Origin: Clostridia bacterium
Lineage (GTDB): Bacteria; Bacillota; Clostridia; Christensenellales; Aristaeellaceae
Length of the DNA stretch: 32,000 bases
Direction of reading: 5' to 3'
Assembly: GCA_045599485.1 (NCBI GenBank)
Contig: JAZRWA010000040.1
Coordinates: 1 to 32,000, forward strand
The notes beneath the pieces were generated by a model. It ran no database searches. It was given only the letters and a program-made list of their open reading frames with translations, and was not told where the DNA came from. Numbering within the stretch: position 1 is the first letter of the stretch; every line of letters starts with the position of its first letter. Shown piece after piece: positions 7,280 to 25,044 of this stretch. The translations under genes and the position numbers were made by a program.

Positions 7280-7282
7280 TTG

Positions 7283-7639: not shown

Positions 7640-7708
7640 CTGTTTTTCCCCTCCGGAAAAAATATCGGCGTTTTTTGTAAAAAACAAAATCACCTCTCCG
7701 TAAGATTT

Positions 7709-7780
7709 CTGTAAAACACAGAAATTTTACCATTGCTTTACAAATACAACCTCTGTTGTTTTACAGTCATGCCTTATCCT
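7709..7780 (+). promoter_or_regulatory. Candidate Pho-box-like direct repeats and -10 element upstream of the Na/Pi cotransporter
   Basis: TTTACC (7726-7731), TTTACA (7737-7742) and TTTACA (7760-7765) are phased at 11 and 23 bp. An inverted copy tgtaaaaca lies at 7710-7718. A possible -10, TATCCT, lies at 7775-7780 with no good -35. This resembles the Bacillus PhoP TT(A/T/C)ACA repeats. Confidence 0.35.
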
Positions 7781-7817
7781 ACCGTACGGCATCAAAAAAC
7801 AAGTGAGGTGATACACC

Positions 7818-9593
7818 ATGGATCTGTTTGGCATACTGACTATGATCGGAGGGCTCGCCCTGTTTCTGTACGGGATGAATGTCATGGGAGACGGGCTGGT
7901 CATGCTCTCCGGCGGCAGACTGGAGCAAATACTTGAAAAACTGACAAAAAATCGAATCACTGCGCTGCTTCTGGGGGCGATGGTGACCGCGGTCATACAA
8001 TCCTCTTCCGCCACCACCGTGATGGTCGTAGGCTTTGTCAACTCGGGCATCATGAAACTGACACAGGCCGTTGGCATCATCATGGGTGCCAACATCGGCA
8101 CCACGATCACCTCCTGGATCCTGTCCCTGACGGGGATCAGCAGCGGAAACATGTGGGTCCGGCTGCTCAAGCCCAGCTCCTTCTCCCCCATTCTGGCAGC
8201 CATCGGCATCGTTTGCATGATGACCGGCAAGGATGGTTCCCGTAAAAAGACGATCGGCAGCATCCTGTCGGGCTTCGCGGTGCTGATGTTCGGAATGGAA
8301 ACAATGAGCGGCTCGGTCGCTCCTCTGAAAGACAGTTCCGCCTTTACGGGAATGCTGACCGCCTTTTCGCACCCCGTATTGGGAATGGCGGCAGGTGCCT
8401 TGCTGACGGCGGTGATACAAAGCTCCTCCGCGTCTGTCGGCATTTTACAGGCGCTGTGTCTGTCCGGCGCCGTCACCTATGGCACCGCCATCCCCATCAT
8501 CATGGGACAAAACATCGGCACCTGCGTAACAGCGCTGATCTCTGCTGTAGGGGGCGGACAAAACGCCAAGAGAGCGGCCTTCATTCACCTGTATTTCAAT
8601 CTGATCGGCACGATCCTGTTTATGGCTGTATTCTATCTGCTTCACCATTTTGTCTCTTTTACCTTCTTATCCGACATCGCCGGCGCGGCGAGCATTGCCC
8701 TGATCCACAGTTTGTTCAATCTGGGGTGCGCGGCGCTATTGTTTCCCTTTGCAGATCAGCTGGTGGCGCTTGCAAAGCTGACCGTCGGACATTCAAAAAC
8801 AGCTGTCCCCACCTTAACGCTGCCCGGGGAGCTGTCCGCCTTGGACGAACGCTTTCTGGACACTCCCTCCTTTGCCATTCAGCTTTGCAAAAACGCCGTA
8901 ACGAAAATGGCGGAGCATTCGCAAAAATCGATTCTTCTTGCCCTGGAGCTGCAAAGCGAATATGATGGTAAGAAAGCTGCTGAAATCATTTCGCTATAGC
9001 AGCTGGTCGATCAATTTGAGGACGCCGTCGGCACCTATCTTGTCAAGCTTGCGGGGCGCGATCTGAACACAGAGGACAGCCACATGCTGTCCGTGCTGCT
9101 CCACAGCATCAGTGATTTTGAAAGGATCTCGGACCACGCCGTCAACATTACCGAAGCCGTGGAAAAAATGCAGAAACAGGCCTTGTCGTTTACAGACAGC
9201 GGAAAACAGGAATTGGACGCGCTGGGCATTGCCATCCGTGATATAATGACATTAACGCGGGATGTGTTCACCTCCGGCAACACCGATGCCGCCGCCCATG
9301 TGGAACCGCTGGAAGAAGTGATCGATGATCTTGTGATGGAAATAAAACAGCGGCACATCCAGCGGCTGAGGAACGGCAGCTGTACCATGGAAACGGGACT
9401 GCTTCTGGAGGATATCATGACCAACTGTGAAAGGGTATCCGACCATTGCTCCAACATCGCCGCGGCACTGATCGAAATACAGGCCGATGAGCTTTCCATG
9501 CACCAGTACATCGATGTAACGGTCAAGGGCAGCGACCCCCATTTTCGGGAGGAGTACCTGCGTCTGAAGAACATTTACATTCTGCCTTCGTGA
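7818..9593 (+). pseudogene. Na+/phosphate cotransporter family protein (NptA-like) with a C-terminal PhoU-like domain. A single in-frame TAG at 8997-8999 interrupts it, so it is either a pseudogene or recoded/read through.
   Basis: ORFs 7818-8999 and 9084-9593 are in the same frame (offset 1266 = 3 x 422), and 9000-9083 has no stop. Duplicated Na/Pi motifs VIQSSSATT and VIQSSSASV are present. The PhoU-like helices (DAVGTYLVKL..., ISDFERISDHAVNI, CERVSDHCSNI) continue straight through the TAG. Confidence 0.85.
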
Positions 9594-9607
9594 GGAAAGG
9601 GATACAC

Positions 9608-10300
9608 ATGGCTCTGATCTATCTTGTGGAGGACGACCCCGGCATACGGGAAATTGAAACGATTGCCCTGAAAAACAGCAATTACATGGTGCAGGCGTTT
9701 GATCATGCGGCCTCCTTTTATGAAAAACTGGACAAAATCCTCCCCGACCTTATTCTGCTGGACGTCATGCTACCGGACGAGGACGGCTACCGAATCATCC
9801 GTCGCCTGCGAAGCAATCCCCGAACGAGACGGATCCCTGTGATCATGATCACCGCAAAGACATCTGAGATGGATATGGTGAAAGGCCTGGATGACGGTGC
9901 CGACGATTATATCCGCAAGCCTTTTTCCATACTGGAACTGCTCTCCAGGGTGCGTGCACTGCTGCGGCGATCCCGTGAGGAAGAAGCACCCGCACAGCTG
10001 CTGGTGGGCGGCATTCTGCTGGACCATGAGCGGCACACCGTCCTCTCCGACAGCAAAAACATCACACTCACCTTAAAAGAATATGAACTGCTCCGTTACC
10101 TGATGATCAATGAGAATGTTGTTCTGAGCAGGGAATCCATCATGCGAGCCGTCTGGGGAACGGAATTTGAAGGTGAAAGCCGCACCGTGGATATGCACAT
10201 CAAAACCCTGCGGCAGAAGCTGGGTGAAAACGGAAGGCAGATCTATACCATCCGGGGCGTGGGCTATTCCATCCGCAAAGAATGTGGTGAAGAGGCATGA
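9608..10300 (+). CDS. OmpR/PhoB-family response regulator
   Basis: 230 aa from the ATG at 9608 (RBS gaggaaaggg). Receiver domain (LVEDDP..., LILLDVMLPDEDG, ITAKT, KPF) plus winged-helix domain (LTLKEYELLRYL, VDMHIKTLRQKL, TIRGVGYSI). Its stop overlaps the kinase start (ATGA). Confidence 0.9.
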   Translation: MALIYLVEDDPGIREIETIALKNSNYMVQAFDHAASFYEKLDKILPDLILLDVMLPDEDGYRIIRRLRSNPRTRRIPVIMITAKTSEMDMVKGLDDGADDYIRKPFSILELLSRVRALLRRSREEEAPAQLLVGGILLDHERHTVLSDSKNITLTLKEYELLRYLMINENVVLSRESIMRAVWGTEFEGESRTVDMHIKTLRQKLGENGRQIYTIRGVGYSIRKECGEEA

Positions 10301-11613
10301 AGCGGAAGATCAATCTGCGGCTCGGCCTGATCGCGCTGATCGCCATCCTGATCGCCACAACGGGGATCACGCTTGTATATTACAGCCTGTTTCAAGATCA
10401 GGTGCGCCGCGACCTGAAGCAAAGCGCGATGCTGCTGGCAAAAACCGCACTGCTCGAAAATGCCGCTGTTTCCGGCAGGGAATCTTTTTATCCGGACAAT
10501 CTGAGGATCACCTGGGTGGAGGGCGATGGCACAGTACTGTTTGATAACGATGCCGATGCTGCCGTGCTTGCCAATCACGCGGACCGTCCCGAAATACGGC
10601 AGGCCCTGGAGCAGGGCGAAGGCGAAAGCACCCGACGCTCTGACACCATGAACATGCGCACCTTCTATTACGCCCTGCGTCTGGAAAACGGCACGGTGCT
10701 GCGTGTTTCCACTCAGGCCGGGACGATCGAAAGTGTGCTGCTCGCCGCGCTGCCGGTCATTGCGGCCCTGATCGTGCTCGTGCTCCTTTTGTGTATTGTG
10801 ATCGGGCACCTTCTGACACGCCAGCTGATGCAGCCCATTGAGGAAATGGCCGAGCATCTGGATGATGGCGTCAGCCGCCCTGTCTGCAGGGAGCTGGCAC
10901 CCTTTGCCGAAAAAATACGCAGCCAGCATGAAAACATCCTGGCTGCCGCCAAAAGCAGGCAGGATTTTACAGCCAATGTGTCGCATGAGCTGAAGACGCC
11001 GATCACCGCCATCACCGGCTATGCCGAGCTGATCGAAAACAGCGTGATAGACGGCAAAGCAGCGGTTCACGCGGCAGGATAGATCCGTCACAATGCGGAG
11101 CGTCTGCATTCTTTGGTGACCGACATCATTCAGCTTTCCGAGTTGGATCACAAAGAGCTGCCGAGACGATTTGAACAGGTCGACCTGCTTTCTGTCGCGA
11201 AGGAATGCGCCGGCGAATATCTGCCCATGGCGGCGCACAGAAATATCCATCTGACCTGCAGCGGAACCCCGGCCGGCATCACCGCCGACCGCGGATTGAT
11301 CCATGAAATGATCGGCAACCTGCTGCAGAACGCCATCCGCTACAACAAGGAAAACGGAAAAGTGGAGGTTCATGTCACGATTGAAGACCGGCACCCCCTG
11401 ATCACCGTGGCGGACACCGGCATCGGCATTCCCGCCGATCAGCTGGACAGAGTCTTTGAGCGGTTTTACCGGGTAGACAAAAGCCGCTCCCGTCAGACCG
11501 GCGGCACCGGTCTGGGGCTTGCCATTGTGAAGCACATCGCAGAGCTTCATTCCGCAGAGATCACGATACAAAGCACCATTGGTGAGGGAACGGTCATCAC
11601 CGTTCATTTTTAA
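10297..11613 (+). pseudogene. PhoR-like sensor histidine kinase. A single in-frame TAG at 11080-11082 interrupts it, so it is either a pseudogene or recoded/read through.
   Basis: ORFs 10297-11082 and 11113-11613 share a frame (offset 816 = 3 x 272), with no stop between them. There are two TM segments flanking an extracellular domain. H-box is SHELKTPITAITGYAEL. The TAG falls in HisKA helix 2 (...HAAG*IRHNAERLHSLVTDIIQLSELD). N box LLQNAIRYN, G1 DTGIGI and G2 GGTGLGLAIV are intact downstream. Confidence 0.85.
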
Positions 11614-11649
11614 GGAATGGGTTTGAATCGCACGACCGTCCATCATAAA

Positions 11650-11693
11650 GGAGCTGTGAACGCGTTTCCGCCTTCACAGCTCCCTTTTTTGTT
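11650..11693. terminator. Terminator between the convergent kinase and dehydratase genes
   Basis: ggagctgtgaa / ttcacagctcc (11 bp) followed by cttttttgttt on the plus strand. An A-run on the other side allows bidirectional use. Confidence 0.8.
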
Positions 11694-11698
11694 TATTA

Positions 11699-13408
11699 TC
11701 AGGTATCCAGCTTGCTGCTGTCCACAATGGCGCCGGTATCGGCACCGGTCACGAGGGTGGCGTACTTGGCCAGCGCGGTCAGGCGCGGCTTATGCAGCGG
11801 CTTCCAGCCCTCGCGGCGGCGGGCAAACTCCTCCTCGGAGACATCCACCGTCAGCGTACGGCCGGGAATATCGATGTGAATGATGTCGCCATCCTGCACG
11901 AAGGCGATGGGGCCGCCCTGCGCGGCTTCGGGGCAGATGTGGCCGATGCAGGGGCCGTGGGTAGCACCGGAGAAGCGGCCGTCGGTGACGAGGGCCACGT
12001 CGTTATCCATGCCGCGGCCCATGATGAGCGCGGTGGTGGACAGCATCTCGCGCATGCCGGGGCCGCCCTTGGGGCCCTCATAGCGGATGACGATGACGGT
12101 GCCCTTTTCGATGGTGTCACCGCTGACGGCGGCATCCGCCTCCTCCATGGAGTTGAACACACGGGCTTTGCCAGTAAAGGTCATCATGCTCTCCCGCACG
12201 CCGGACTGCTTGACCACCGCGCCCTTGGGAGCCAGATTGCCCCACAGCACAGCGATGCCGCCTTCCGCCTTCTGCGGATTCTCCATGGTTTTGAGCACGT
12301 CATCGGGGGCGGCGGTGTATTCACTCACCATCTCACGCATGGTTTTGCCGGTGCAGGTCATGACATCCATTTCCAGACGGGACTCAATGGTCTTGAGCAC
12401 GGAGGGAATGCCGCCGCTGGCATCGAGCGAGGAGATGGGATATTTGCCGGAGGGCTGCAGGTTGCACACAAAGGGCACCTTGCGGCTGATGCGGTCGAAG
12501 TCGTCCAGCTGCAGATCGACACCCGCCTCGTGCGCGATGGCCATCAGGTGCAGCACCAGGTTGGTGGAGGAGCCGGTCGCCATGGCTCCGGTCACGCCGT
12601 TGAGCAGCGTTTCACGGGTCAGGATATCGCGGGGCTTGATGCCCTTGCGCAGCAGCTCCATGACGGCACGGCCGCTGGCCTTGGCGATGCGCTTGCGCTT
12701 GTTGGAGGCGGCGGGGGCGGTACCGGAGCCCGGCAGACCCATGCCCAGCACCTCAGTCAGCATGCACATGCTGTTGGCGGTGCCCAGGTGCGCGCAGCTG
12801 CCCACGGTAGGCAGGGTGATCTTTTCGGCTTCCTTCATGTATTCGGGGGTGATGACACCGGCCTCGACACGGCCGGGGAATTCACGCAGCTCGGAAGAGC
12901 AGAACAGCGGGTTGCCGCCCACGTTGCCGGGCAGCATCGGGCCGCCGGGAACGATGATGGTGGGAATGTTGAGGCGGGCTGCTGCCATGATCATACCGGG
13001 GATGATCTTGTCACAGCCGCCCAGCAGCACCATGGCGTCAAAGTGATGAGCCTCGACCACCATTTCAATGCTGTCGCAGATGAGATCACGGCTGGCCAGC
13101 GGGTAACGCATGCCCTTGTGACCCTGGCACAGGCCGTCACAGATGGCGATGGTCTCGCTGCGTCTGGGCACGCCGCCGGCCTCGTAAATGCCGCGGCAGA
13201 CGCACTCAGCCAGTTCCTCCAGATGGGTATGGCCGGGCACCATCTCACTGAAGGAACCAATGACAGCCACGAAGGGCTTTTTCATGTCCTCTTCATCCAT
13301 GCCGGTGGCATACAGCAGGGCGCGCTGGCCGCTGCGGGCGATGCCGTTGGTCAGTTCGGAAGACCGCAGCGCGGGATCCTTGAAAATAAATTCGTCCTCG
13401 AAGTGCAT
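11699..13408 (-). CDS. ilvD: Dihydroxy-acid dehydratase (IlvD/Edd family). A role as a sugar-acid dehydratase is not excluded.
   Basis: 569 aa. Family motifs are [53 protein letters not shown] and [31 protein letters not shown] is aaaggagg. Confidence 0.85.
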
Positions 13409-13559
13409 GGGGGCATCCTCCTTTGAATAATGGATTCATTGTTCATCGGCTGCGCTCCCACATCCCTCGGGGACGTGTTTGCCACACCGGTTCATCTGTT
13501 GGAAAAACCGGTTCTTATATTCCGTTATGGGTTGGGGAATCGCTTTTCCCAACAGGATT

Positions 13560-13588
13560 ATATTACCATATCACCCGGCTGATTGCAA
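13560..13588 (-). promoter_or_regulatory. Candidate promoter of the dehydratase gene
   Basis: Minus strand reads TTGCAA-17 nt-TAATAT (ttgcaatcagccgggtgatatggtaatat). It leaves a 5' UTR of about 150 nt. Confidence 0.45.
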
Positions 13589-13624
13589 TAGGCTTTAAAA
13601 ATTTGTTTTTAATCAGAAGGACAG

Positions 13625-13664
13625 AACGGAAAACGGCGGGAAGCACGTTTTTGTGCCTCCCGCC
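13625..13664 (-). terminator. Intrinsic terminator of the rubrerythrin gene
   Basis: Minus strand has ggcgggaggcac / gtgcttcccgcc (12 bp, one G-U) followed by gttttccgtt. Confidence 0.7.
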
Positions 13665-13688
13665 GCTATGATCGGCGTTGGGTCAAAA

Positions 13689-14348
13689 TCAATAATTTTC
13701 GGCGTTGATCTCAAAATAGCTCTGGGGATGGGCGCAGACGGGGCAAACCTCGGGAGCCTTGGTGCCCACCATGATGTGACCGCAATTGCGGCATTCCCAC
13801 ACCTTGACCTCGCTCTTTTCAAACACCTGCTGCATTTCCACATTTTTGAGCAGGGCACGATAGCGCTCCTCGTGGTGCTTTTCGATGGCGGCGACCATGC
13901 GGAACTTGGCAGCCAGATCGGCAAAGCCTTCGGCTTCGGCGGTTTTGGCAAAACCCTCGTTCATATCGGTCCACTCGTAGTTTTCACCGTCGGCAGCGGC
14001 CGCCAGATTGGCAGCGGTATCGCCGATGCCGTTCAATTCCTTGAACCACATTTTGGCATGTTCCTTCTCGTTATCGGCGGTCTTGAGGAACATGGCAGCG
14101 ATCTGTTCAAAGCCTTCCTTCTTGGCCTTGGAGGCAAAATACGTATACTTGTTGCGGGCCTGGGATTCGCCGGCAAAGGCGGCTTCCAGGTTCTTTTCGG
14201 TCTGGGTTCCGGCATAGGGGTTGGCCTTGGGGGCTTCCTCTGCCTTCTTGAATTTGGAGGCAGGTACCTTGCACTTGGGGCACTTGAAATCGGGCGTCAG
14301 AGGGCCCTCATGCACATAACCGCAAACGGTACAGATCCACTTTTCCAT
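13689..14348 (-). CDS. Rubrerythrin-family protein with rubredoxin-like Cys4 motifs at both the N- and C-termini
   Basis: Start is the ATG at 14348 ([11 protein letters not shown]...) with AGGAGG upstream. N-terminal Cys motifs CTVC...CPKC. Ferritin-like di-iron helices include [23 protein letters not shown] and EKHHEERY. C-terminal Cys motifs CRNC...CPVC. Confidence 0.9.
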
Positions 14349-14385
14349 GATTCGATCCTCCTTAAACAATATTTTTTGTACTGTT

Positions 14386-14414
14386 ATTATATCAGCATTG
14401 AAATCCGCTGTCAA
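14386..14414 (-). promoter_or_regulatory. Consensus promoter of the rubrerythrin gene
   Basis: Minus strand reads TTGACA-17 nt-TATAAT exactly (ttgacagcggatttcaatgctgatataat). The imperfect inverted repeat aacagta-N7-tattgtt in the short UTR could be an operator. Confidence 0.7.
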
Positions 14415-14458
14415 ACAAGCAAAAGCCGCCTGACAGACATTGCAGTCTGTCAGGCGGC
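14413..14458 (-). terminator. Intrinsic terminator of the M28 peptidase gene
   Basis: Minus strand has gccgcctgacagac / gtctgtcaggcggc (14 bp perfect) followed by ttttgcttgttt. Confidence 0.85.
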
Positions 14459-14482
14459 GTACTTTGATCGTCGGAAGACCGA

Positions 14483-16618
14483 TTACTTGAGCAGCTCGGT
14501 CAGGCTGTTCATGGCAGCGATCTCAGCATTGAGCTCGGTGCCCAGCAGCTCCAGCTGCGCGGCACGCTCGGCGGTATACACCGTCAGCTCATCGGCAAAG
14601 TCCGCAGTCTCCTCTTCCGCCTTCATCAGCAGGGAAGCGGTGGCCGGCCAGGTGTTGGTGTACACAAAGCCCTTGCCCTTGCCCCACAGCTGGGCGTTGC
14701 CGCGGGCGGCATCGGCATGCAGCGCCAGGCAATCGGCAGATTCGGGCGTGAAGATGTAGTAGGCATACTCCGCCAGCGCGTTGAGGCCCCAGGCCAGGTC
14801 GAGGGCACCGGTCTCCTCCTCGTTGAACAGCTCGCCGTTTTCCAGCGCGGCGATGATGCCGTCCAGCAGGTACAGGTTATCCTGATAGCCCACATGGCGT
14901 TCCACCACGTCGCTGGAGAACTCGATGCGGATGAACTCATCCTGCACCATCTTGAAGGCGGCCAGGGTGGTCTTGTTCAGCAGCACGCCTTCGGCACGCA
15001 GAGCGTCCTTTTCCTCCTGGGTGTCAGCGGCGGCATAACGGGCGTTGAGGTCATCGATGCGGGCGTTGTGCTGCTCGCAGGCGGCGGCCATGGCAGCATA
15101 CGCTTCCTTCCAGGCTTCCACATGCACACCGGCTTCGGCGGCGTATTGCTCGTCAAAGGCGTCGATGAGGTCAGAGCAGGAATTGGTCAGGTCCAGGCGC
15201 AGGGCGGGCTCGGCATCGATGGAGAGCAGGATGCTGCCAAACACGGCGATGTTGTTGCGCATGGTGTTCTCGTCGTAGGTGGTCAGGTCATCGCTCTGGG
15301 TGTGATAGTGCAGCTGGCTCCAGCCGTAGGTATCGACAGGACGCAGCTCACCGGCACAGGTGTCGGTCACGTTGATGAAGTAAGGCACACCGGCATTGCG
15401 GTAGGAAATGCCGTCTTCCATGGTGGTGGTGTCAAAGGTCACGGGGTTCACGCCCTCGCGGCCCACCACGTTCAGCGCGTTGTTTTCCACCAGATCGGCC
15501 ACCAGGGTGCGGTACTCGGGCACGCAGCTGACAGCGAACACGTTGTTGCCGTCATCAAAGGCGCACAGCTCAAAGTTGAACAACGCCAAGGTCTTTTCCG
15601 CCCATTCGGGATGCACGTTGTTGATCAGCTCCCACGCGCCGCGGGTCCAGTCAAACTCGGTACCGCTGATGCCCCACTCTTCGGCACCGTGGGCAATGAT
15701 CAGCACATCGTTTTCGGGCTGCACGCCGCTGTCGAGGATGCCCTTGCCGATGGCCATGGCGCAGGCAATGGCGGAGCAATCATCCTGGAAGCCCTCGAAG
15801 TACATATCATAGTGGCCGGACACGATCATCTGCTGCTCGGAGGAGCGGCCGGGAATGCGGCCCACCACGTCATAGCTGACGCCGGTGCCGATCTCCATCA
15901 CGCTGTCCACGATGAGGGTGCACTGATTGTGGCCCTCGGCGATGGCGTTGATCATGGCATCGCCCATGGCCTTGGTGACGATCACGGTGGGCATCAGGTC
16001 CTCACAGCACACGTCCTGAATCTGATAAACATCATCGCTCCAGCGGCCATAGCCGTCGATGTCATAGCTGACCACGGCGGCAGCGCCCTGCACATAGGCT
16101 TCGGCGATGTACTGGCCGATCCAGGCTTCGTTCCACTGGTCCACGCCGATCAGCACGATCTTGCCCTGCACGTCCTTGCCCTCGTAATCATAGGCAAAGC
16201 CGGTGCCGCAATCCACGATCTCGGCGGTGATGCCCTCGGCAGAGGTGCCGTTGAGCATGTAGGAGACGGGCATCACGTTGATGTCGGTGCCCTCGATGGT
16301 CAGGGAAGCGCCGTTGAACTGCCACTTATCGACAGTGACGGGGATCAGTTCAACATCCTGCAGACCGATGGCACGCATTTCTTCGGCAATGAATTCGGCG
16401 GCACGATGCTCAGCATCGGAGCCGGCGGTACGGAAGCCCATGCTGTTATCATGCATGGATTTGTCGGTGGAAAGCTTCACCGCCAGCTCATAGGCATAGT
16501 TGACATCCATGGCGTTCAGATACGCCGCCACGGCGTCGGTGGTCTCTTCCGCGCTGACAAAGGAGGCAGCGCTGAGAATCATCATAAGCGCCAGAAACAG
16601 GGAAACGATCTTCTTCAT
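14483..16618 (-). CDS. Secreted M28-family metallopeptidase (aminopeptidase-like) with an inserted PA-type domain and a long C-terminal extension
   Basis: 711 aa. Signal peptide is [26 protein letters not shown]28 metal-ligand pattern is SGHYDMY...QDDCSAIA...[15 protein letters not shown] is aggagg. Confidence 0.8.
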
Positions 16619-16976
16619 GAGATATTTCCTCCTATTTGAGATTGCCGCAGGCTGGATGGGTAAAGAAAAGAGGTGATGTGCCTAAACACACATCACCCCG
16701 AAAGCATATGGTGATCGGGATAAGGATAGGTTGTCAGAGTCTATACAGTAATCGACTTACTTTTACTACTCTTATTGACCATTTCACTTCGGATGTGTGA
16801 AACCTGGCTTTTAACCAAATCAATGAGATAGCAGCAGAAGCTGCGTGCGAGTTTATACCCCGCATCGGCATTGGACCCGGCTGTCCGTCCGGCCTTATGT
16901 CCCTTCCCTTCGGAAGAAACAGGTCCTGTCTCTTACCCGGAATGACCCTTCTCATTCCTTATCTGCGACGCGACAA
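16619..16976 (-). promoter_or_regulatory. Long structured 5' leader (about 350 nt) of the M28 peptidase gene, with mutually exclusive terminator and antiterminator hairpins. The riboswitch or attenuator class is unassigned.
   Basis: Minus strand has terminator aggtgatgtgtg-tttagg-cacatcacct plus cttttcttt (plus coordinates 16661-16697). The segment ggggtgatg can alternatively pair with the upstream gatcacc (16692-16716). Further upstream hairpins include ggaatga-gaaggg-tcattcc and cttcc-gaag-ggaag. Confidence 0.5.
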
Positions 16977-17005
16977 AGTATATACGATATGCCGCTTTCT
17001 GTCAA
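16977..17005 (-). promoter_or_regulatory. Promoter driving the M28 leader
   Basis: Minus strand reads TTGACA-17 nt-TATACT (ttgacagaaagcggcatatcgtatatact). Confidence 0.6.
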
Positions 17006-17037
17006 CATAAAAACGAACAAAAATGCAAAAAATCTCT

Positions 17038-18690
17038 TTATTCCAGCGCGATATCAAAGGTCAGCGCGGCAAGATCCGCCGTCAGCACGGCGCTGTGTCC
17101 GCCGCATCTGCGGCACAGACGCAGGGTGTGACGATCGGCCAGCTCCGCACGGATGGAGGCATCCTCCCCAAAGGCCGGATGGGCCGCACGCAGGCGAAGC
17201 AGGTCCAGCTGCTTTTTCACGACCGTACGGTTCAGGCGCTTTGCCGCTTCGGCCTCATCGAGGGCACGGCGGTTGATCTCGCGGGCATCCGCCCCCGGAT
17301 CGCGTTCAAAGACCGTCAGGTCATTGGTCTCCGCCAGCAGATCGCCGTACCACACCTGCGGCACGCCGGGCATGAACAGCTGTACGGCACGGCACAGAAG
17401 CAGCGCCGCCTCGCTTTCCCCCAGCGCGCTGAAATAGGTGCCGCACATCTGATAGACCTCGTCCTTTTCACCGTGGATCCATTTGGCACGGCAGCCCTGC
17501 TCCTCCAGGGCGGACACGAGCGCATCGATGCGTTCATCGGGCAGAAGCCCCCGCAGATCGCGGATGGGAATGCCGTCATGGCAGCCCAGCATGTTGACGG
17601 TGCGATATCCGTTTTCGATCTGTTCGGTCGCCCAGCGGCAGAGGTAGGCGGCATCCTGATGCTGCAGCGCGTCCAGCAAAAGCCCGGGCAGGAAATAATC
17701 ATAGGTGCGGCATCCGCGCGCCGCGATGCGGGCATAAGCGCCCGTACGGTAGGGCATGTGTACCTCGGGCAGTACTGCCAGATCATGGGAGGCGGCCATT
17801 TCCTTCAGCTTTTCCAGCAGATCCCACGTTTCGGGCTCGTTGAGCACGTTGCTGCGGCCGCTTTCCTTGTGCAGGCGGGTGAAGGCATCCAGACGCACCA
17901 TGCCGGCACCGTATTTTTTGAGGCGGCCCATCGTTTCGTCATACCACTGCCACACGAGGGGACTGCGGGCGTTCAGGTCCATCTGTCCCATGTACTTGCG
18001 GTGGCTTTGCAGCCACGCGATGGACTTTTCGCGATAGTCCTCCAGCCCCGTGAAATCCATTTTTGCGGGCACGGTGCCGTTTTGCACCTGCTCCGCGACC
18101 GTTTCCGCAAGGCGGCAGGCGGCGGCATACTGACCTCCGGTGATGTCCAGCAGGTCCAGTGCGTCGGGGCTGGGATAGATGACCTGCTGATAAAAGGTGT
18201 TCCAGAAAGGCACCTCACTGCCGTCGGGCAGGCGGACCATCAGGATGGGCAGGCCCTTTTTGCGCAGATTGGCTGTCAGAAAGCAATCGGGGCGCGGAAG
18301 GATATACCCTTCCTCCGTCATGTCGCCCAAGCCCTGCCAGAAGCGGTTCCAGTCGATGAAAAAATCACGGAATGGAGAGCTGTCGCCGTTTTTGAGGATG
18401 TCCATGAACTGCGGGGACAGCACGGACAGGTGATTGAGGATCAGGTCGAAGGTGAGATCGATCCCCAAAGAACGCAGCGTTTCCAAGTCCTTTTCCTGCG
18501 CCAGCTGATTGCACAGCTCATAGGAGATGACCGAGAAGCCGCCGTCCAGATCGGTATTGAACACCGTCGGCAGGATGTAAAAGGAGCCGAAGGCCTCCTT
18601 CAGTTCCGGCAGGGACAAAAAACGGGTCATGGCCGCAAGATCCTTGCCGATGGAATTGGGGTACGCGTTGAACATGGCTCCCTGTTTCAT
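17038..18690 (-). CDS. Sucrose-phosphorylase-like GH13 (subfamily 18 type) glycoside phosphorylase
   Basis: 550 aa. GH13 catalytic signatures are VRLDAF (nucleophile), LPEVH (acid/base) and GCHDGIP, plus FMPGVPQVWYGDL, which is typical of sucrose phosphorylase relatives. RBS is gaaaggaaaa. The start lies 21 nt after the GH32 stop. Confidence 0.8.
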   Translation of the reverse strand: MKQGAMFNAYPNSIGKDLAAMTRFLSLPELKEAFGSFYILPTVFNTDLDGGFSVISYELCNQLAQEKDLETLRSLGIDLTFDLILNHLSVLSPQFMDILKNGDSSPFRDFFIDWNRFWQGLGDMTEEGYILPRPDCFLTANLRKKGLPILMVRLPDGSEVPFWNTFYQQVIYPSPDALDLLDITGGQYAAACRLAETVAEQVQNGTVPAKMDFTGLEDYREKSIAWLQSHRKYMGQMDLNARSPLVWQWYDETMGRLKKYGAGMVRLDAFTRLHKESGRSNVLNEPETWDLLEKLKEMAASHDLAVLPEVHMPYRTGAYARIAARGCRTYDYFLPGLLLDALQHQDAAYLCRWATEQIENGYRTVNMLGCHDGIPIRDLRGLLPDERIDALVSALEEQGCRAKWIHGEKDEVYQMCGTYFSALGESEAALLLCRAVQLFMPGVPQVWYGDLLAETNDLTVFERDPGADAREINRRALDEAEAAKRLNRTVVKKQLDLLRLRAAHPAFGEDASIRAELADRHTLRLCRRCGGHSAVLTADLAALTFDIALE

Positions 18691-18711
18691 GCTGCTGTTT
18701 TCCTTTCTGCG

Positions 18712-19701
18712 TCACAATGTCAGGCGGATATGCACTTCCGCCCCGCGGTCCACAAAGCGTTCTGTTACATAGGCATCCGTCAACGTATCGTTTTCATCGA
18801 GAAGGTGCTGTACCTCTTCCACGGGGTACGCACGGATGCGGTCCTTTTCGATCGTCAGCTCCAGCGGCAGCGACAGGCAGCCGACACATTTTTCGGGCTG
18901 ATAATGCCAGCCGCTGACCCACGAAATGAGAATGAGCCTGCCTTTATGATCGCGGAAGATCTGCCCGGCGTACTCATCCGGCCCTTTCTGAAAATGGGAG
19001 GTCAGGCGGGGCGCAAAGCGGTGCCCGTCAAAATCGCCCATCATGACATCAAAATACAGCGGCGCATCCTTGGGGCGGACGGATACCGCGATCAGACAGC
19101 CGTCGCTTGTGGGCACAATGGAGGGGCACTCGCAGCTGTCGGTGCCGGGATAATCCCGCAATACGCCCCGGTAGTGCCAGGACAAAAGGTCGTCACTTTG
19201 ATATAGCAGCAGGTTGCCGCCGCTGCCGTCGGGGTACGCCGAACCGATCAGCATATAGTAAGAGCCCCGATATTCGCACACCGCGGGGTCGCGGAAATCG
19301 GCACTGCCCTATGCGGGATACGCACTGATGATGGGATTGCCCGGATATTTTTCAAAGGTCTCGCCGTCACGGGAGACAGCCAAACTGATGGTCTGCCGTC
19401 CGTTTGCGTCCGCCGAGGAGTAAAAGGCATACAGCACGCCGTCCTTTTCGATGGCGGTGCCGCTCCACACGCCGCGGATATCATAATCACGGTCGTTGAC
19501 GATGGCGGGTGCTTTTTCCTCCCAGTGAAGAAAATCCCGTGTGACAGCGTGCCCCCACACCAGGGCGGGCGGGCGTTCGTTGGTCGGGGTATGCTGATAA
19601 AACACATGGTATTGCCCGCGGAAATCGATCAGGCCGTTGGGATCGTTGATCCAGCCGCGGGCGGGATGATAATGCCATTTCAGTTCGGCGTTGGAACGCA
19701 T
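18712..19701 (-). pseudogene. GH32 beta-fructofuranosidase / sucrose-6-phosphate hydrolase-like gene. A single in-frame TAG (19309-19311) interrupts it, and its C-terminal region is unusually short.
   Basis: ORFs 19309-19800 and 18712-19281 share a frame (519 = 3 x 173). Reading through gives ...NPIISAYPA*GSADFRDPAVCEY.... Catalytic motifs WINDPNG, FRDP and ECP are all intact. The likely start is the ATG at 19701 (MRSNAELKW). The total of about 329 codons compares with roughly 430-490 typical for the family. Confidence 0.8.
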
Positions 19702-19746
19702 GCTTTTCTCCGTTATGCTCAAAACAGGAGCTTTTTTATCACTTTC

Positions 19747-19775
19747 ATTATATGCGGTCTGTCTTTTGCGCGCAA
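19747..19775 (-). promoter_or_regulatory. Candidate promoter of the GH32-GH13 operon
   Basis: Minus strand reads TTGCGC-17 nt-TATAAT (ttgcgcgcaaaagacagaccgcatataat). The -35 sits inside the 10 bp perfect palindrome ttgcgcgcaa. Confidence 0.5.
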
Positions 19776-19882
19776 GGGCAAAATCAGCGACAAATATCAA
19801 CGAAAGTTAACGCTGCCGCGGCAAATTTGTGGTATAATGCTTCTTGCCCCGAAAGGGCTTGATATAGATTGGAGGTTTTATC

Positions 19883-21757
19883 ATGTCCGAAAACAGAAAA
19901 GGCAATATTTCCATCCATGCGCAGAATATCATGCCGGTCATCAAGCGCTGGCTGTATTCCGACCAGGATATTTTCATCCGTGAGCTGGTCGCCAACGGCT
20001 GCGACGCCGTGACCAAGTTCCGCATGACGGGCGGCACCGCCGAGGAAGAGCTGAAGGTGACCGTGACCGTGGACAAGGACGCGGGCGAACTGCGCTTTGA
20101 GGACAACGGCATCGGCATGAGCGCCGAGGAAGTGGAAAAGTACATCAATCAAGTGGCTTTCTCCGGCGCGGAAGAATTTTTGAAAAATTATCAGGGCAAT
20201 GAGGACGGCGGCATCATCGGCCATTTCGGCCTGGGCTTCTATTCCGCCTTCATGCCGTCTGACAAGGTGACCATCGACACGCAGTCCTGCAAGGCCGGGG
20301 AGGCGCCCGTCCGCTGGGAAAGCACCGATGGCATGGCCTATGAGATGAGCGAAAGCACCAAGACGGGCCGCGGCACCATCATCACCCTGCACATCAACGA
20401 GGAATCCAAAGAATTTCTGGATACCTACCGCGTGCGCGAGGTGCTGGACCGCTACTGCGGCTACATGGCGGTGCCCATCTATCTGGTGGATGTGAAGGAA
20501 GAAGCCCTCAAGGCGGAGGAAGTCGCGAAAAAGGCCGCCGAGGCAAAGGAGGACGGGGAAACCGAAGAAAGCAAGGTCCCCGCGCCCATCAACGATACGC
20601 ATCCGCTGTGGCTCAAGGCCCCCAAGGACTGCACCGAGGACGAATACAAGGACGCTTACCGCAAGCTGTTCAATACCTTTGAGGAACCGCTGTTCTGGAT
20701 CCATCTGAATGTGGATTATCCCTTCAACCTGAAGGGCATCCTGTACTTCCCCCGCATCCGCAAGGACTTTGGCGGTCAGGAAGGACAGATCAAGCTGTTC
20801 AACCGTCAGGTGTTTGTGGCAGACAACATCAAGGAGATCATTCCCGAGTTTTTGCTGCTGCTGCGCGGCGTGCTGGACTGCCCCGACCTGCCGCTGAATG
20901 TGAGCCGCTCCTTTTTGCAGAATGACGGCTATGTCAAAAAGCTGTCTGCCCACATCACCAAGAAGGTGGCGGACAAGCTGAACGCGCTGATGAACACCGA
21001 GCGCGAAAAGTACCAGACCTACTGGGACGACATCCATCCCTTTGTCAAATACGGCTGCCTGCGGGACAGCAAGTTTGATGAGTCCGTCAAGGGCAGCATC
21101 CTGCTGAAGACCACCGCCGGCGAATATTTCACGCTGGACGAGTACCGCTCCCGCAATGAGGGCAAGGCCGGCAAGAAGGTGTATTACACCACCGACGCCG
21201 CGCGTCAGGCGGCTTCCGTGGCGCTGTATGTCAGCCGCGGCATCGATGTGGCCGTGATGGACAGCATGATCGACATCAGCTTCATGCAGCATCTGGAAAA
21301 CCGTGAGGGGGCTGAAGGTCTGGCCTTTGCCCGCGTGGACGCCGATGTGGAAGGCCTGAAGGATGAGGAAAACGCCGGGGAAGCACCGGAGCTGGCGCCG
21401 CTGGAGACGCTCTTCCGCGAAGCGGTAGGCGATGACAAGCTGAACGTCAAGCTGCAGCCGCTGGCGGATGACACGCTGCCGCTGATGCTGCTGGAGGATG
21501 AGCAGATGCGCCGCTACCGTGAGATGTCGGCGATGTACGGCAACGGCTTCAAGCTGCCCGAAAAGCCCGAAGTGGTGCTCAACAGCCGCTGCGAAGCCGT
21601 CAAGGCACTGAGCGGCATGGAGGATGAGGAGCTGAAGAAGACGCTGGCAAGGCACTACTTTGACATTGCGCGCATGGCCTCCCGTCCGCTGGAAAATGAC
21701 GAGCTGAGCGCGTTCATCCGCGACAGCTACGCTCTGGCCGCCCGCCTGAGCAAGTAA
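19883..21757 (+). CDS. htpG: Molecular chaperone HtpG (Hsp90 family)
   Basis: 624 aa. GHKL motifs are FIRELVANGCDA, DNGIGMS and GHFGLGFYSAF. Middle-domain motif is LNVSRSFLQ. RBS is ggagg. An extended -10, TGgTATAAT, lies at 19830-19838. Confidence 0.93.
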   Translation: MSENRKGNISIHAQNIMPVIKRWLYSDQDIFIRELVANGCDAVTKFRMTGGTAEEELKVTVTVDKDAGELRFEDNGIGMSAEEVEKYINQVAFSGAEEFLKNYQGNEDGGIIGHFGLGFYSAFMPSDKVTIDTQSCKAGEAPVRWESTDGMAYEMSESTKTGRGTIITLHINEESKEFLDTYRVREVLDRYCGYMAVPIYLVDVKEEALKAEEVAKKAAEAKEDGETEESKVPAPINDTHPLWLKAPKDCTEDEYKDAYRKLFNTFEEPLFWIHLNVDYPFNLKGILYFPRIRKDFGGQEGQIKLFNRQVFVADNIKEIIPEFLLLLRGVLDCPDLPLNVSRSFLQNDGYVKKLSAHITKKVADKLNALMNTEREKYQTYWDDIHPFVKYGCLRDSKFDESVKGSILLKTTAGEYFTLDEYRSRNEGKAGKKVYYTTDAARQAASVALYVSRGIDVAVMDSMIDISFMQHLENREGAEGLAFARVDADVEGLKDEENAGEAPELAPLETLFREAVGDDKLNVKLQPLADDTLPLMLLEDEQMRRYREMSAMYGNGFKLPEKPEVVLNSRCEAVKALSGMEDEELKKTLARHYFDIARMASRPLENDELSAFIRDSYALAARLSK

Positions 21758-21779
21758 CGGGACGAAAAAGGAAAACATC

Positions 21780-21998
21780 GGGGAAGGCACGCTTTTCGTG
21801 CCGAAAGGCATGTCCTCCCCGAACCCCGCCCGGGAAAAGGCAGTTTTTCACATAGCAAAACACCTTTGCACTGATGACTGTAACAGACATCAAGGCAAAG
21901 GTGTTTTTGGGGGATCGTAATATACTGCCTTTTCTCTAAGAGGGGGTAAAAAGGGGGAGAGATATTCTTTTCGGCTTCGAAAAGAGTACCTCTCCCCC
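21780..21998. repeat. Composite nested-palindrome intergenic repeat, copy 2 (full length)
   Basis: Left hairpin 21780-21820 (ggggaagg..cctcccc, inner gcttttcg/cgaaaggc). Central hairpin is cacctttgc..gatga / catc..gcaaaggtg. Right hairpin 21953-21998 (gggggagag / ctctccccc, inner tcttttcg/cgaaaaga). It lies between convergent htpG and the surface-protein gene. Confidence 0.85.
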
Positions 21999-22033
21999 TA
22001 AAAATCGCTTTTTTAAGAGCCTTCGTTTGTTTT

Positions 22034-23836
22034 TTACTCGTCCTCGCCGGAGTTGGCGGAGGTGGTGTTGCGGCGCTGATACACACCGGCGTTGTCGGCG
22101 GCAGTCTCTTCCGCCTGACGGCTCAGATGATAAGCGCCGTTATCATGCATCTGCTGCGCGGGCGCGGGGGCCACGTCGGTCTCGTTGTTGGCAAACTCGG
22201 GAATCTCTTCCGTTCTGTCCTCCGCCGTTTCGGTGTAATCGCGGCGGGTTCCCACCTCAAAGCTGTCGATGGCACGGGCAGAAGCACCGCGGCGCACGGC
22301 ACGCACAATGGTCGCCACCAGGAACAGCAGGAACATGGCGGCGAAAAGACCGCCCAGAACGTAGATCACCTTAAGCAGGATGCCGCTCGTCTGCACTGCC
22401 ATGGGCTCCAGCACCTCAATGGGCGCGACCGTGACCGTGACCAGCGGAGCGACCGTCAGCATGGGCACGTCGGTGGGCGCGGCCGTGGGACGGGCATAGG
22501 TGATGTTCATCTCGTTGGATTCAAAGTTGTTGATGTTGCCCAGTTCATCCTTGACCGAGGCGGTGAAGCGGTACTTGCCCGCCTGCGACAGGGTAAAGTC
22601 ACGGGCGATGGTCACGCTGGCACCGGGCTCCAGGCTGGCGATGGTGTACACGGTGACCGTACCGTGCTTGACCGCCACGTTTTTGACGGTCTTGGCGGAG
22701 TTGTTGGTCACGGTGATGTTGAAGGTCATATCACCGGGCACGCGGGCAATGGTGTACGCGGCAGGCTCCGCGGCCACCGTCATGCGCAGCACCTGCGCGG
22801 GGTTGTAGGCGCTGATCTTCAGCTCGTTGCTGGTGACGGTCTTGGTGTTGCCGGTGTTGTCCGGCAGGGTCACCGTAAACTTGAAGGAAGCGGACGCATT
22901 GAGCGTGTACTGCTTTTCGCGGATCAGCGTTTCGCCGGGGTTCAGCGTCAGACCGCTGAAGATCTCACCGTAGGTGGGATCGGTCACCTTGATGTTGCTG
23001 TAGGTGATGTTGCCGTTGTTGACCAGCTTCAGGGTCAGGGTGACGGTCTCACCGATCTCGACAGCGGTGCTGTCGGCGGTCAGCATATCATCGGTCACCA
23101 GACCGGGCTTGGCCATGGGAATGGTGACAGCCGGCACCGTCATGCTGGTGCTGCCTTCACCGATCTTGTAGGTGATGGTGCCCTCGCTGGTCAGATCATC
23201 CTTGTAACCCATGGTGGCGGTAAACTTGACCGTTTTGCGCTCGCCGGGGGCCAGGGAAGCCACCGTCTGGGCAATGCCGCCGATGGAGGCGTTTTCACGC
23301 ACACGGATGTTGGTGATCTCCACATTGCCGGCGTTGACCAGCTCGTACAGCACGGTCACGGTTTCGCCGGAGCGCACGACCTCGGGCTCCACGGTGCGGT
23401 TGGCGGTCAGCTTGGCCTCCTCCGCCGCACGGGTGATGACCGCGGAAGCGGACAGGTCGCGGATGACGCCATCCTCACTGTAGGTCAGGGTGTAGGTCAG
23501 CTTGCCGTCGCTCAGCTGAGCCTCGCTGACGGCGCAGGTGTGCGTGCAGGTGACAAACTCACCCTCGCCCAGGATGGCCTGACCGCCGTCACCAAAGGAG
23601 GTGACCAGCTGGCCGTTGGGGTCATGCAGCATGACGGCGTTCTTCATCGCCGCCCCCTGATTGACCACACGGATGGAGACCGTGGTGGTGCCCGCGCCGC
23701 TCAAAGCGGCCGGCTCACAGGTCAAAGTCATTTCAAGATTGTTTTCCGCGCAGGCGGAAACGCCAAGCAGCAGCATAACAGCCAGCAAAGCAGCCATCAG
23801 CCAGCGGATTTTTGTGTTTTTGAGGGCAAAAGACAT
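22034..23836 (-). CDS. Cell-surface protein with a lipoprotein-type signal peptide, four to five CARDB/DUF11-like beta-sandwich repeats, a C-terminal TM anchor and an acidic cytoplasmic tail
   Basis: ORF extends to 23842. I prefer the ATG at 23836 because GGAGG lies 7 nt upstream. Lipobox-like sequence is LLLGVSAC. Recurrent repeat signatures are GETVTVLYELVNAGNVEITNIRV, GETVTLTLKLVNNGNITYSNIKV, GDMTFNITVTNNSAKTVKNVAV and TTTVSIRVVNQGAAMKNAVM. The TM segment is ILLKVIYVLGGLFAAMFLLFLVATIV. Confidence 0.7.
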   Translation of the reverse strand: MSFALKNTKIRWLMAALLAVMLLLGVSACAENNLEMTLTCEPAALSGAGTTTVSIRVVNQGAAMKNAVMLHDPNGQLVTSFGDGGQAILGEGEFVTCTHTCAVSEAQLSDGKLTYTLTYSEDGVIRDLSASAVITRAAEEAKLTANRTVEPEVVRSGETVTVLYELVNAGNVEITNIRVRENASIGGIAQTVASLAPGERKTVKFTATMGYKDDLTSEGTITYKIGEGSTSMTVPAVTIPMAKPGLVTDDMLTADSTAVEIGETVTLTLKLVNNGNITYSNIKVTDPTYGEIFSGLTLNPGETLIREKQYTLNASASFKFTVTLPDNTGNTKTVTSNELKISAYNPAQVLRMTVAAEPAAYTIARVPGDMTFNITVTNNSAKTVKNVAVKHGTVTVYTIASLEPGASVTIARDFTLSQAGKYRFTASVKDELGNINNFESNEMNITYARPTAAPTDVPMLTVAPLVTVTVAPIEVLEPMAVQTSGILLKVIYVLGGLFAAMFLLFLVATIVRAVRRGASARAIDSFEVGTRRDYTETAEDRTEEIPEFANNETDVAPAPAQQMHDNGAYHLSRQAEETAADNAGVYQRRNTTSANSGEDE

Positions 23837-23891
23837 GCCCATCCCTCCTCCCGATGCGCCATGGGCGCAAAAGCGGTACTATTCAGCCTCT

Positions 23892-23920
23892 ATAATAGCG
23901 AATCATGCCGATTCTGTCAA
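23892..23920 (-). promoter_or_regulatory. Promoter of the surface-protein gene
   Basis: Minus strand reads TTGACA-17 nt-TATTAT (ttgacagaatcggcatgattcgctattat). Confidence 0.6.
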
Positions 23921-23973
23921 GCAAAATCGGCGCAATTATTACAAAATTCTTTCATTTTTGTTAAGAGGAGGAC

Positions 23974-24152
23974 GGGGTTTCCAAACCTTCCGAGAAAAAG
24001 CAGTTTTTATTTCTATACAAAGGCACCCTTGCTTTGATGAAAGATATCATCATCAGGGCAAAGGTGTTATACTGTCTGATAAAAACTGCCCTTTCTCGGA
24101 AGGGGTTAAAGGGGAAACCATGCTTTCCGGCTTCGGAAAGCGTGGTTTCCCC
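23974..24152. repeat. Composite nested-palindrome intergenic repeat, copy 3 (left terminal hairpin largely missing)
   Basis: Arm module aaaccttccgagaaaaagcagt. Central hairpin is cacccttgc..tgatga / tcatca..gcaaaggtg. Mirrored arm is actgccctttctcggaaggggttaaa. Right hairpin 24111-24152 is ggggaaacca / tggtttcccc with inner gctttccg/cggaaagc. Only ggggtttcc remains of the left hairpin. Confidence 0.8.
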
Positions 24153-24186
24153 TTATAAAATCTTACGTCTCCACACGAAAGCACTC

Positions 24187-25044
24187 CTACGGCGGGGCGG
24201 TGAAGGTCATGCGTTCGCCCGTAGCGGGATGCGTGAAAGACAGCGAAAAGCTGTGCAGCATCAGCCGCGGCGCATGCGGCATGTTGCGGTTGCCGTAAAT
24301 AACATCACCCAGCACGGGATGATGAATGGAAGCCATGTGCACACGGATCTGATGCGTACGGCCCGTGATGATGTGCACATCCAGCAGGGCGCGGTCCTTT
24401 TCCTGCCGCACGAGCTTCCACAGCGTCAGGGACGGCCGTCCCTCCGGATCGATCGCCATCTTTTTGCGGTCATTTTTGCTGCGCGCGATGGGCTGATCGA
24501 TGCGCCCTTCGCTTTCCTTCATCACGCCTGCCACCCAGGCGTAGTAATGCTTTTCCATTTGTCTTTCGCTCAGCTGCAGACTGAGTGCCTGATGCGTCTC
24601 GTCATCCTTGGCGACCAGCAGGATGCCGCTGGTATCCTTGTCCAGACGGTGCACGATGCCGGGGCGCAGCTCGCCGCCGATGCCGGACAGCGCGTCCAGA
24701 TGATACAGAAGGGCGTTGACGAGGGTGCCGTCCGGGTTTCCCGCCGCGGGATGCACCACCATGCCCGCCGGCTTGACCACCACCGCCAGATGCTCATCCT
24801 GATAGAGCACCTGCAGGGGAATATCCTGCGCTTCGGCCTTGGCGGGCTTCAAGTCGGGCAGTGTCAGCACGATCTGTCCCGAAGCGGGCTTGGCGGAAGG
24901 CTTTGTTTCCGGCTTGCCGGCGACCGTCACCGCCCCCTGTCGGATCAATTCCGCCGCGCGGGAACGCGACAGAGACCCATCCCGGGATAAAAGCACATCC
25001 AGACGCGTGCCGTCTGCCTCAAGCACAATGTTTTCCATGGTCAT
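24187..25044 (-). CDS. rluD: RluA-family 23S rRNA pseudouridine synthase (RluD-like)
   Basis: 285 aa. N-terminal S4 domain (RLDVLLSR...SRSRAAELIRQG). Catalytic motif is HRLDKDTSG. HQIRVH is also present. It overlaps the lspA 3' end, the classic lspA-rluD arrangement. An alternative start is the ATG at 25038. It is the only gene here that terminates at TAG. Confidence 0.88.
   Translation of the reverse strand: MTMENIVLEADGTRLDVLLSRDGSLSRSRAAELIRQGAVTVAGKPETKPSAKPASGQIVLTLPDLKPAKAEAQDIPLQVLYQDEHLAVVVKPAGMVVHPAAGNPDGTLVNALLYHLDALSGIGGELRPGIVHRLDKDTSGILLVAKDDETHQALSLQLSERQMEKHYYAWVAGVMKESEGRIDQPIARSKNDRKKMAIDPEGRPSLTLWKLVRQEKDRALLDVHIITGRTHQIRVHMASIHHPVLGDVIYGNRNMPHAPRLMLHSFSLSFTHPATGERMTFTAPP

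Follow-up and report, generated by a model that had tools for sequence, protein, structure and literature searches.

In-frame TAG codons at glutamate columns in four genes of a Clostridia chromosome segment

Four TAG-containing genes in a 32-kb window

The stretch of DNA analysed here, called the window below, comprises 32,000 nucleotides (contig JAZRWA010000040.1 of the Clostridia bacterium assembly GCA_045599485.1, from an uncultured inhabitant of the gut or rumen) and is a segment of a bacterial chromosome with 57% GC. The gene-level counts of terminators and lesions given below refer to its 21 annotatable genes. A TAG codon was found within the reading frame of four of these, encoding a Na/Pi cotransporter (NaPi), a PhoR-like histidine kinase, a GH32 glycoside hydrolase and an RluD-family pseudouridine synthase (Table 1). 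Here we describe these codons and weigh whether they are translated, are genuine stops or are errors in the assembly.

The TAGs in the NaPi, kinase and GH32 genes had been reported in a first-pass annotation of the sequence, and all three lie where it had placed them. Each of these genes has a single TAG, zero frameshifts and zero in-frame TAA or TGA codons, and Pfam domains were detected on both sides of each TAG, in agreement with the unbroken frame and motifs described earlier. Frameshifts were found in none of the 21 genes. For the truncated products that the interrupted genes yield, the database has exact singleton entries derived from the deposited contig of 32,516 bp, and the TAGs are therefore present in the deposited assembly.

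The TAG in rluD had previously been read as a terminator that is backed up by a TAA shortly after it. This reading was not upheld by the homologues. About 120 homologues, with lengths of 288-292 amino acid residues, run through the TAG column. We compared the gene with that of a sister species with 87-93% nucleotide identity to the window, which is represented by the loci L081, L082, L083 and L085 of the ENA assembly ERZ27247129 and, as a second source, by an NCBI metagenome-assembled genome named 'Clostridia bacterium', which carries MCQ2453993-MCQ2454391. The C-terminus encoded in the window is ...TFTAPP[TAG]ECFRVET-TAA and that of the sister species is ...TFTALPEECFRVET-TGA. The window gene thus keeps the final seven residues of the sister protein after the TAG, followed by TAA. 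Within its 90% identity cluster, the window RluD is the sole truncated member, with 283 residues against 290-292. Judged by these alignments, the TAG in rluD is a fourth in-frame TAG and not a terminator.

When the open reading frames bounded by TAA and TGA alone were scanned for further hidden in-frame TAGs, only the four sites and TAGs in 5' untranslated regions were found. TAG accounts for 4 of the 9,114 codons and for about 1% of the GAG-type codons. Ahead of five of the 21 genes (those for M28 peptidase, HtpG, the DUF11 surface protein, LspA and GuaB), an in-frame TAG occurs 15-70 nucleotides upstream of the start codon, at the window positions 16684, 19865, 23881, 25486 and 25828. At the M28 peptidase gene, the ribosome-binding site and the start of the signal peptide both come after this TAG, which belongs to the 5' untranslated region. 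These upstream TAGs may be due to chance.

Table 1. Positions of the in-frame TAG codons in the window and of the genes concerned
Feature	Position	Strand	Remarks
Na/Pi cotransporter with C-terminal PhoU domains	7818-9593	+	Terminator TGA; Pfam Na_Pi_cotrans upstream and PhoU downstream of the TAG
In-frame TAG no. 1	8997-8999	+	Na/Pi cotransporter, where the first PhoU domain begins; preceding codon CTA
Response regulator	9608-10300		Same operon as the histidine kinase
PhoR-like histidine kinase	10297-11613	+	Terminator TAA; HisKA upstream and HATPase_c downstream of the TAG
In-frame TAG no. 2	11080-11082	+	Sensor kinase, within the HisKA dimerisation helix; preceding codon GGA
GH32 glycoside hydrolase	18712-19701	-	Terminator TGA; Glyco_hydro_32N profile positions 1-122, then 128-305, on either side of the TAG
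In-frame TAG no. 3	19309-19311	-	GH32 beta-fructosidase, five codons ahead of the FRDP motif; preceding codon GCA
RluD-family pseudouridine synthase	24163-25038	-	Through the TAG to TAA at 24163-24165; Pfam S4 and PseudoU_synth_2
In-frame TAG no. 4	24187-24189	-	rluD, eight codons ahead of its true end; preceding codon CCG

Residues, constraint and substitutions at the TAG sites

The first-pass annotation had proposed an alignment of orthologues as a check, and this was carried out for all four sites. Each TAG falls in a column dominated by glutamate (Glu, E), and the codon of the nearest relative is GAG at three of the four. In the NaPi column, E was found in 80 of 81 related loci (45 with GAA and 35 with GAG), and the nearest relative, locus L001, has CTT GAG. 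Of the 67 loci compared in the kinase column, 35 have E, 12 have R and 6 have Q, and L001 has CAG. At the GH32 site, the sister species has CCG GAG, and among the close relatives E occurs three times and Q once; among solved structures, E is present in 1uyp (from Thermotoga) and 7vco and D in 7bwb. The RluD column shows E in 5 of 5 close relatives and E or D in the nearest 70 or so, with GAG as the codon of the sister species. To judge from these columns, all four TAGs are compatible with Glu, and the column frequencies make glutamine (Gln, Q) a far worse fit. For random amber mutation, the chance of obtaining two definite Glu sources and two that are Glu or Gln was computed as about 0.006-0.03.

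TAG could nevertheless be read as Gln by a supE-like tRNA-Gln(CUA), possibly borne by a prophage, as in the phage genetic code 15. UAG to Gln is the usual reassignment in phages and eukaryotes, the replacement of Glu by Gln is conservative, and a close relative has Q at two of the four columns (L001 for the kinase, the NCBI sister genome for GH32). However, the near-invariant E of the NaPi column and the lack of Q among the close relatives in the RluD column argue against Gln, and so does the GAG found in the relatives at three sites, because under a Gln code the drift should have CAG as its starting point. Phage genes are absent from the window. We regard decoding as Gln as quite improbable.

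The selection on the TAG-containing genes was analysed by the ratio of nonsynonymous to synonymous substitution rates (dN/dS) in comparison with the sister species. For GH32, the overall ratio was 0.085, with 0.072 for the portion upstream and 0.094 for that downstream of the TAG. RluD gave 0.050 and neighbouring genes 0.04-0.15. The downstream portion is thus included in the purifying selection (0.05-0.09). For the two genes of the NaPi operon, conserved columns were inspected. NaPi matched 98 of 98 invariant columns and all 45 downstream columns with a conservation of 90% or more, and the kinase matched 67 of 67 invariant columns. Together, the two genes matched 165 of 165 invariant columns and 103 of 104 downstream columns conserved to at least 90%. 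If substitutions were unselected, two nonsense changes would precede any missense change at an invariant column with a probability of 0.015-0.033. We conclude that purifying selection acts on the affected genes as it does on their neighbours and that they are not decaying.

These results bear on the possibility that the TAGs are genuine nonsense alleles. TAG would then be an ordinary stop codon, the accessory genes, for the fructosidase and in the operon for phosphate transport and sensing, would have lost their function recently and RluD would have suffered a harmless truncation by 8 residues. Several observations fit such a loss. Every TAG is in a non-essential gene or at the very end of a gene, and two of them share one island-like operon, as expected once the operon had become dispensable. 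The genes are intact in the sister species and all other relatives, and a suppressor tRNA was not seen in the window. Like the nonsense pseudogenes of decaying genomes, the window contains recognisable genes broken by a stop codon. Such pseudogenes, however, also show frameshifts, mixed stop codons, missense changes and raised dN/dS, none of which was found in the window genes: there are four nonsense lesions with zero frameshifts, and constraint is not relaxed. In pseudogenes, transitions are the main source of in-frame stops, usually at Gln or Trp codons (PMC8629427), whereas the changes here would be transversions. We judge the nonsense alleles to be unlikely as an explanation, also in view of the substitutions described next.

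In this genome, which is rich in GC at third codon positions (GC3), TAG is expected to make up about 64% of single-base nonsense changes, as calculated from codon usage and the empirical substitution spectrum. TAG is therefore the likeliest nonsense codon, which suits the nonsense alleles, and the fact that all lesions are amber, thought unusual in the first-pass annotation, is not surprising in itself. What we do consider surprising is that there are four single-lesion genes among the 21, all at Glu columns.

Substitutions were then counted over 19.5 kb of alignment to the sister species. In the direction from sister to window, G:C-to-T:A differences numbered 160, compared to 223 in the reverse class, and G:C-to-A:T differences numbered 528, compared to 625 in the reverse. 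G-to-T is the second-rarest substitution class in this comparison, and the nonsense alleles all need or fit a G-to-T change at GAG. The only G-to-T changes that created TAG were the in-frame ones in GH32, found in a context scan of 12.8 kb, and in rluD, seen directly. At the 156 GAG codons of the sister species, the window has TAG at 2, AAG at 1 and CAG at 1. Fourfold-degenerate sites show a G-to-T difference of 3.4% for both branches combined. GAG-to-TAG changes have accrued at about the neutral G-to-T rate and therefore as if they were synonymous. Under the standard code, GAG to TAG is the most harmful change possible. The first bases of GAG codons make up 340 of about 18,400 G:C sites (1.8%), and a recent and random origin of the nonsense alleles would mean that only a handful of G-to-T events took place and that four of these fell within this 1.8%.

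The same numbers speak to an artefact of assembly, consensus building or sequencing, whether from oxidative G-to-T damage, from low coverage or from errors in polishing. The TAGs are known from a single assembly, the contig probably comes from a metagenome-assembled genome and all four changes fit one type, G to T, which is the signature of oxidised guanine. But there is no excess of G-to-T over the sister species, no frameshift in the 21 genes and no aberrant residue at the 165 invariant columns. For an error that is blind to codons, all four hits would have to have landed on first bases of GAG codons. We therefore hold an artefact to be improbable. A G-to-T mutator or a burst of oxidative damage was ruled out by the asymmetry of the substitutions and by the sequence context. 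Deamination or ancient-DNA damage, which gives C-to-T changes, was ruled out since G:C-to-A:T is not in excess and the ancestral codons are GAG. A tandem GG-to-AT mutation or a DNA motif shared by the sites was also considered and rejected: the preceding codons in the relatives are CTT, AGT and CCG, and because they differ, the TAG contexts have no common precursor. An 8-bp palindrome, GCTATAGC, is present at site 1 only and was treated as chance.

Termination, context and tRNAs for decoding of TAG

The first-pass annotation had counted 12 TAA, 11 TGA and 1 TAG as terminators. In our count, the 21 genes end with 11 TAA, 10 TGA and 0 TAG, the last number being zero because the rluD TAG is in frame and the real stop is TAA. 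That TAG is nearly unused as a terminator thus holds for the window. Relatives with ordinary genes gave a similar picture, with TAG terminators in 0 of 18 genes of the sister species, 1 of 20 in locus L086 (55% GC) and 2 of 22 in the rumen strain NK3D112; other loci of at least 52% GC had 5 in 54. Since low use of TAG is found throughout the clade, the 0 of 21 in the window adds little.

The avoidance of TAG was also seen outside the reading frame. Out-of-frame TAG is the most depleted trinucleotide of the coding strand, with 7 observed and 64.5 expected in the window and 8 observed and 48.5 expected in the sister loci. Its reverse complement CTA reaches 0.73-0.78 of the expectation. UAG is avoided specifically on the mRNA strand, a trait common to the clade. 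In the 32-kb window, the tetranucleotide CTAG occurs 0 times and TTAG 7 times.

Position -1 of the TAG is occupied by A in three of four cases (CTA, GGA and GCA), compared to 6.5% before GAG codons. Codons ending in A make up 7.5% of the total, and CTA is used 4 times in the 9,114 codons. The chance of finding A at -1 in at least three of four sites is about 0.001, for a pattern that was noticed post hoc. Genuine nonsense alleles would leave this A unexplained. The exception is rluD with a G at -1, where termination costs only eight residues. Readthrough of UAG is stimulated by A at -1 in yeast, viruses and mammalian cells (PMC4615788). By analogy with these systems, three of the four sites may have a context that favours readthrough.

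To account for the TAGs by programmed recoding of the pyrrolysine or selenocysteine type, one can point out that TAG is the pyrrolysine codon and that some Clostridia carry pyl genes. The host genes, however, encode a transporter, a kinase, a GH32 hydrolase and RluD and none encodes a methylamine methyltransferase; the columns are Glu and neither Lys nor Cys; and pyl genes (pylTSBCD) were not found in the window. RNA folding downstream of the NaPi, kinase and GH32 TAGs gave no significant structure (z-scores of -1.1 to +2.3), and SECIS- or PYLIS-like elements were not present at these three sites. This type of recoding is effectively refuted for the sites studied.

The tRNAs encoded in the window are tRNA-Thr(CGU), tRNA-Pro(CGG) and tRNA-Leu(GAG). 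Suppressor tRNAs were not found in 1.4 Mb of loci from relatives. A tRNA-Glu(CUC) is present in a relative, with no link to the source organism of the window. Genes for tRNA-Glu-like molecules with a CUA anticodon were detected in metagenome contigs of JGI: L091 (1476-1551), L097 (697-771), L094 (3691-3764), L095 (779-852) and L100 (4425-4488 and 8201-8267). One of them, in L100, lies near a CUC twin and two lie inside tRNA arrays. The large open reading frames of L100 contained no in-frame TAG. The pattern scans for Glu-type CUA tRNAs gave environmental examples only, and none was tied to the clade of the window. Since such genes exist in metagenomes, the Glu-type CUA tRNA proposed below is feasible.

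Taken together, our results suggest, with a probability of roughly 0.55, that TAG is translated at least partly, most likely as Glu, by a CUA suppressor or through an early reassignment. The observations are the four sites, their alignment with Glu, the purifying selection and the absence of a signature of random error; from these we infer the tRNA, which residue is inserted and what has become of release factor 1 (RF1). The first-pass annotation had left three options open. Suppression or reassignment is favoured because the TAGs lie at Glu columns in genes under the same purifying selection as their neighbours, and its pyrrolysine-like variant is rejected. Pseudogenisation and artefact are disfavoured in their random forms: purifying selection, the lack of a mismatch at invariant columns and the lack of a G-to-T excess speak against random error, a mutator burst and neutral decay. 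The feature behaves like stop-codon suppression or reassignment, and we claim no membership in either class. The likelihoods that we attach to the different readings are not meant to sum to one, and decoding as Gln is a variant of the translation of TAG.

How TAG would be translated as Glu can be outlined as follows. A tRNA with the anticodon CUA and charged with Glu would derive from a copy of tRNA-Glu(CUC) by one anticodon change, C36 to A. It would compete with RF1 at UAG or would have replaced it, and RF1 may be weakened or may still be competing. If UAG means Glu, the G-to-T change that turns GAG into TAG would be synonymous and could drift to fixation, and such drift would leave isolated TAGs at Glu positions in genes that remain functional. 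It is also possible, though we propose it tentatively and at slightly less than even odds, that the lineage has begun to decode UAG as Glu chromosome-wide. This would be an early stage, in which TAG has already gone as a terminator, internal TAGs are limited to contexts favouring readthrough and a sister of about 90% identity lacks the trait. The state looks young or partial, since the sister species is without these TAGs and TAG is rare among the GAG-type codons.

A number of points weigh against the translation of TAG. There are four sites only, in a single assembly, from a species that was seen once in the collections searched. The affected genes are all dispensable or, in the case of rluD, lose only the last 8 residues, and two of the TAG sites share one operon that looks horizontally acquired. 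No TAG was present in the essential genes gyrA, gyrB, guaB (encoding IMPDH), ilvD, htpG and lspA, a test of low power with about 0.6-0.75 TAG expected in gyrA plus gyrB. In-frame TAGs were likewise absent from 15 orthologues of the sister species, and the trait, if real, is therefore very young. The window contains no CUA-anticodon tRNA and no pyl genes, as had been noted before, and also no RF1 gene (prfA). Charging of a CUA tRNA with Glu is not trivial, because glutamyl-tRNA synthetase normally reads the anticodon. The low use of TAG as a terminator, being clade-wide, is uninformative and provides weak evidence. Finally, a chromosome-wide reassignment of UAG is not known in bacteria (PMC8629427).

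Every bacterial stop-codon reassignment in the literature searched involves UGA (PMC8629427; PMC13462651), and a report of a chromosomal UAG reassignment in bacteria was not found there. The first-pass annotation had likewise noted that chromosome-wide TAG reassignment is not known as an established bacterial code. Reassignment of UAG is known only from phages, organelles and eukaryotes, and the accepted chromosomal cases in bacteria are all UGA. UGA is read as Trp in Mycoplasmatales, some endosymbionts and Eggerthellaceae and as Gly in Gracilibacteria and Absconditabacteria. As in these codes, the stop codon of the window is found in frame in conserved genes and stands at columns of one amino acid, and the mechanism expected, a new tRNA together with a weakened release factor, would be the same. 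It terminates none of the 21 window genes, which is close to its rare use in relatives with ordinary genes. In contrast to the UGA codes, the codon here is UAG, the residue would be Glu, and the codon is very rare and is lacking in the sister of about 90% identity.

In the phage genetic code 15, used by crAss-like, Lak and other gut phages, UAG is a sense codon by means of a CUA suppressor tRNA, and the gut or rumen setting is shared. There, UAG means Gln, whereas the window is chromosomal (gyrA, gyrB, ilvD, guaB, htpG) and its TAGs are at Glu columns, so that neither the phage context nor the Gln columns of this code were found. Among established codes, UAG is known to stand for glutamate only in the nuclear code of peritrich ciliates, where UAA does so as well. 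This code is eukaryotic, genome-wide and ancient and includes UAA, unlike the window, where TAA is still the main terminator (11 of 21). In the strain-level amber suppressors of E. coli K-12 lineages (supE, supF, supD), TAG alleles persist while RF1 is present, which resembles the situation proposed here, and the efficiency depends on context. The classical amber suppressors insert Gln, Tyr, Ser, Leu or Lys, whereas Glu would be inserted here by a candidate tRNA that is only postulated. A natural amber suppressor inserting Glu is not known to have been described in a Clostridia chromosome.

If TAG is indeed translated as Glu, a standard amino acid would for the first time be assigned to the amber codon in a natural bacterium, by reassignment or by standing suppression. 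This would be a new natural genetic code in a free-living bacterium of the gut or rumen and a rare snapshot of a reassignment in progress. A clade nearly without TAG fits the expectation of the codon-capture model, and TAGs restricted in context suggest a remaining competition by RF1, which matches the ambiguous-intermediate model. Standard gene callers would then split about one gene in five here, and pipelines for metagenome quality and annotation would misjudge the genome. The pair of tRNA and synthetase could interest genetic-code engineers. Four real nonsense alleles would instead be an odd and minor case of strain-level gene loss.

Relatives and surroundings of the window

Apart from the genes in Table 1, the annotated genes are gyrA, gyrB, degV, ilvD, htpG, lspA, guaB and those for an AEC transporter, rubrerythrin, an M28 peptidase, a GH13-like glycosidase, a DUF11 surface protein, a GGDEF protein, a DUF711 protein, an ACT protein and a sugar-phosphate isomerase.

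The same species was not present in other samples of the collections searched, where the cluster mates were sequences of the sister species, 88-98% identical and with intact genes. A scan of genome contigs gave only relatives with an identity of 80% or less. When FtsH of the sister species was used as a query for an essential gene of the same genome, only the sister species itself was found above 81% identity. Full-length NaPi homologues above 82% identity were not found either. The closest named isolate, the rumen strain Erysipelotrichaceae bacterium NK3D112, matches the NaPi operon only, with 80% amino-acid identity.

The operon of NaPi, response regulator and kinase (window 7126-11613) follows immediately on tRNA-Thr and tRNA-Pro. 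Its GC content is 52-54%, compared to 57-60% in the surroundings, and the synteny with the sister species breaks off at position 7280. The best homologues of the operon, with 80-82% amino-acid identity, are in a rumen isolate with 45% GC. From its composition and position, the operon is probably a horizontally acquired island.

At the other end, the alignment with the sister locus L083 stops at window position 31552, and the sister goes on with bioY and ftsH in place of the window segment 31552-32000. In the region 11699-18690, the genes for rubrerythrin and the M28 peptidase lie between ilvD and the GH13-like gene, where the protein numbering of the NCBI sister genome allows just one gene. 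An Rfam match to the SpF59 small RNA / ldcC RNA motif (57 bits, gathering threshold 37.2) was obtained on the minus strand at 16865-16926, about 250 nucleotides upstream of the M28 peptidase gene.

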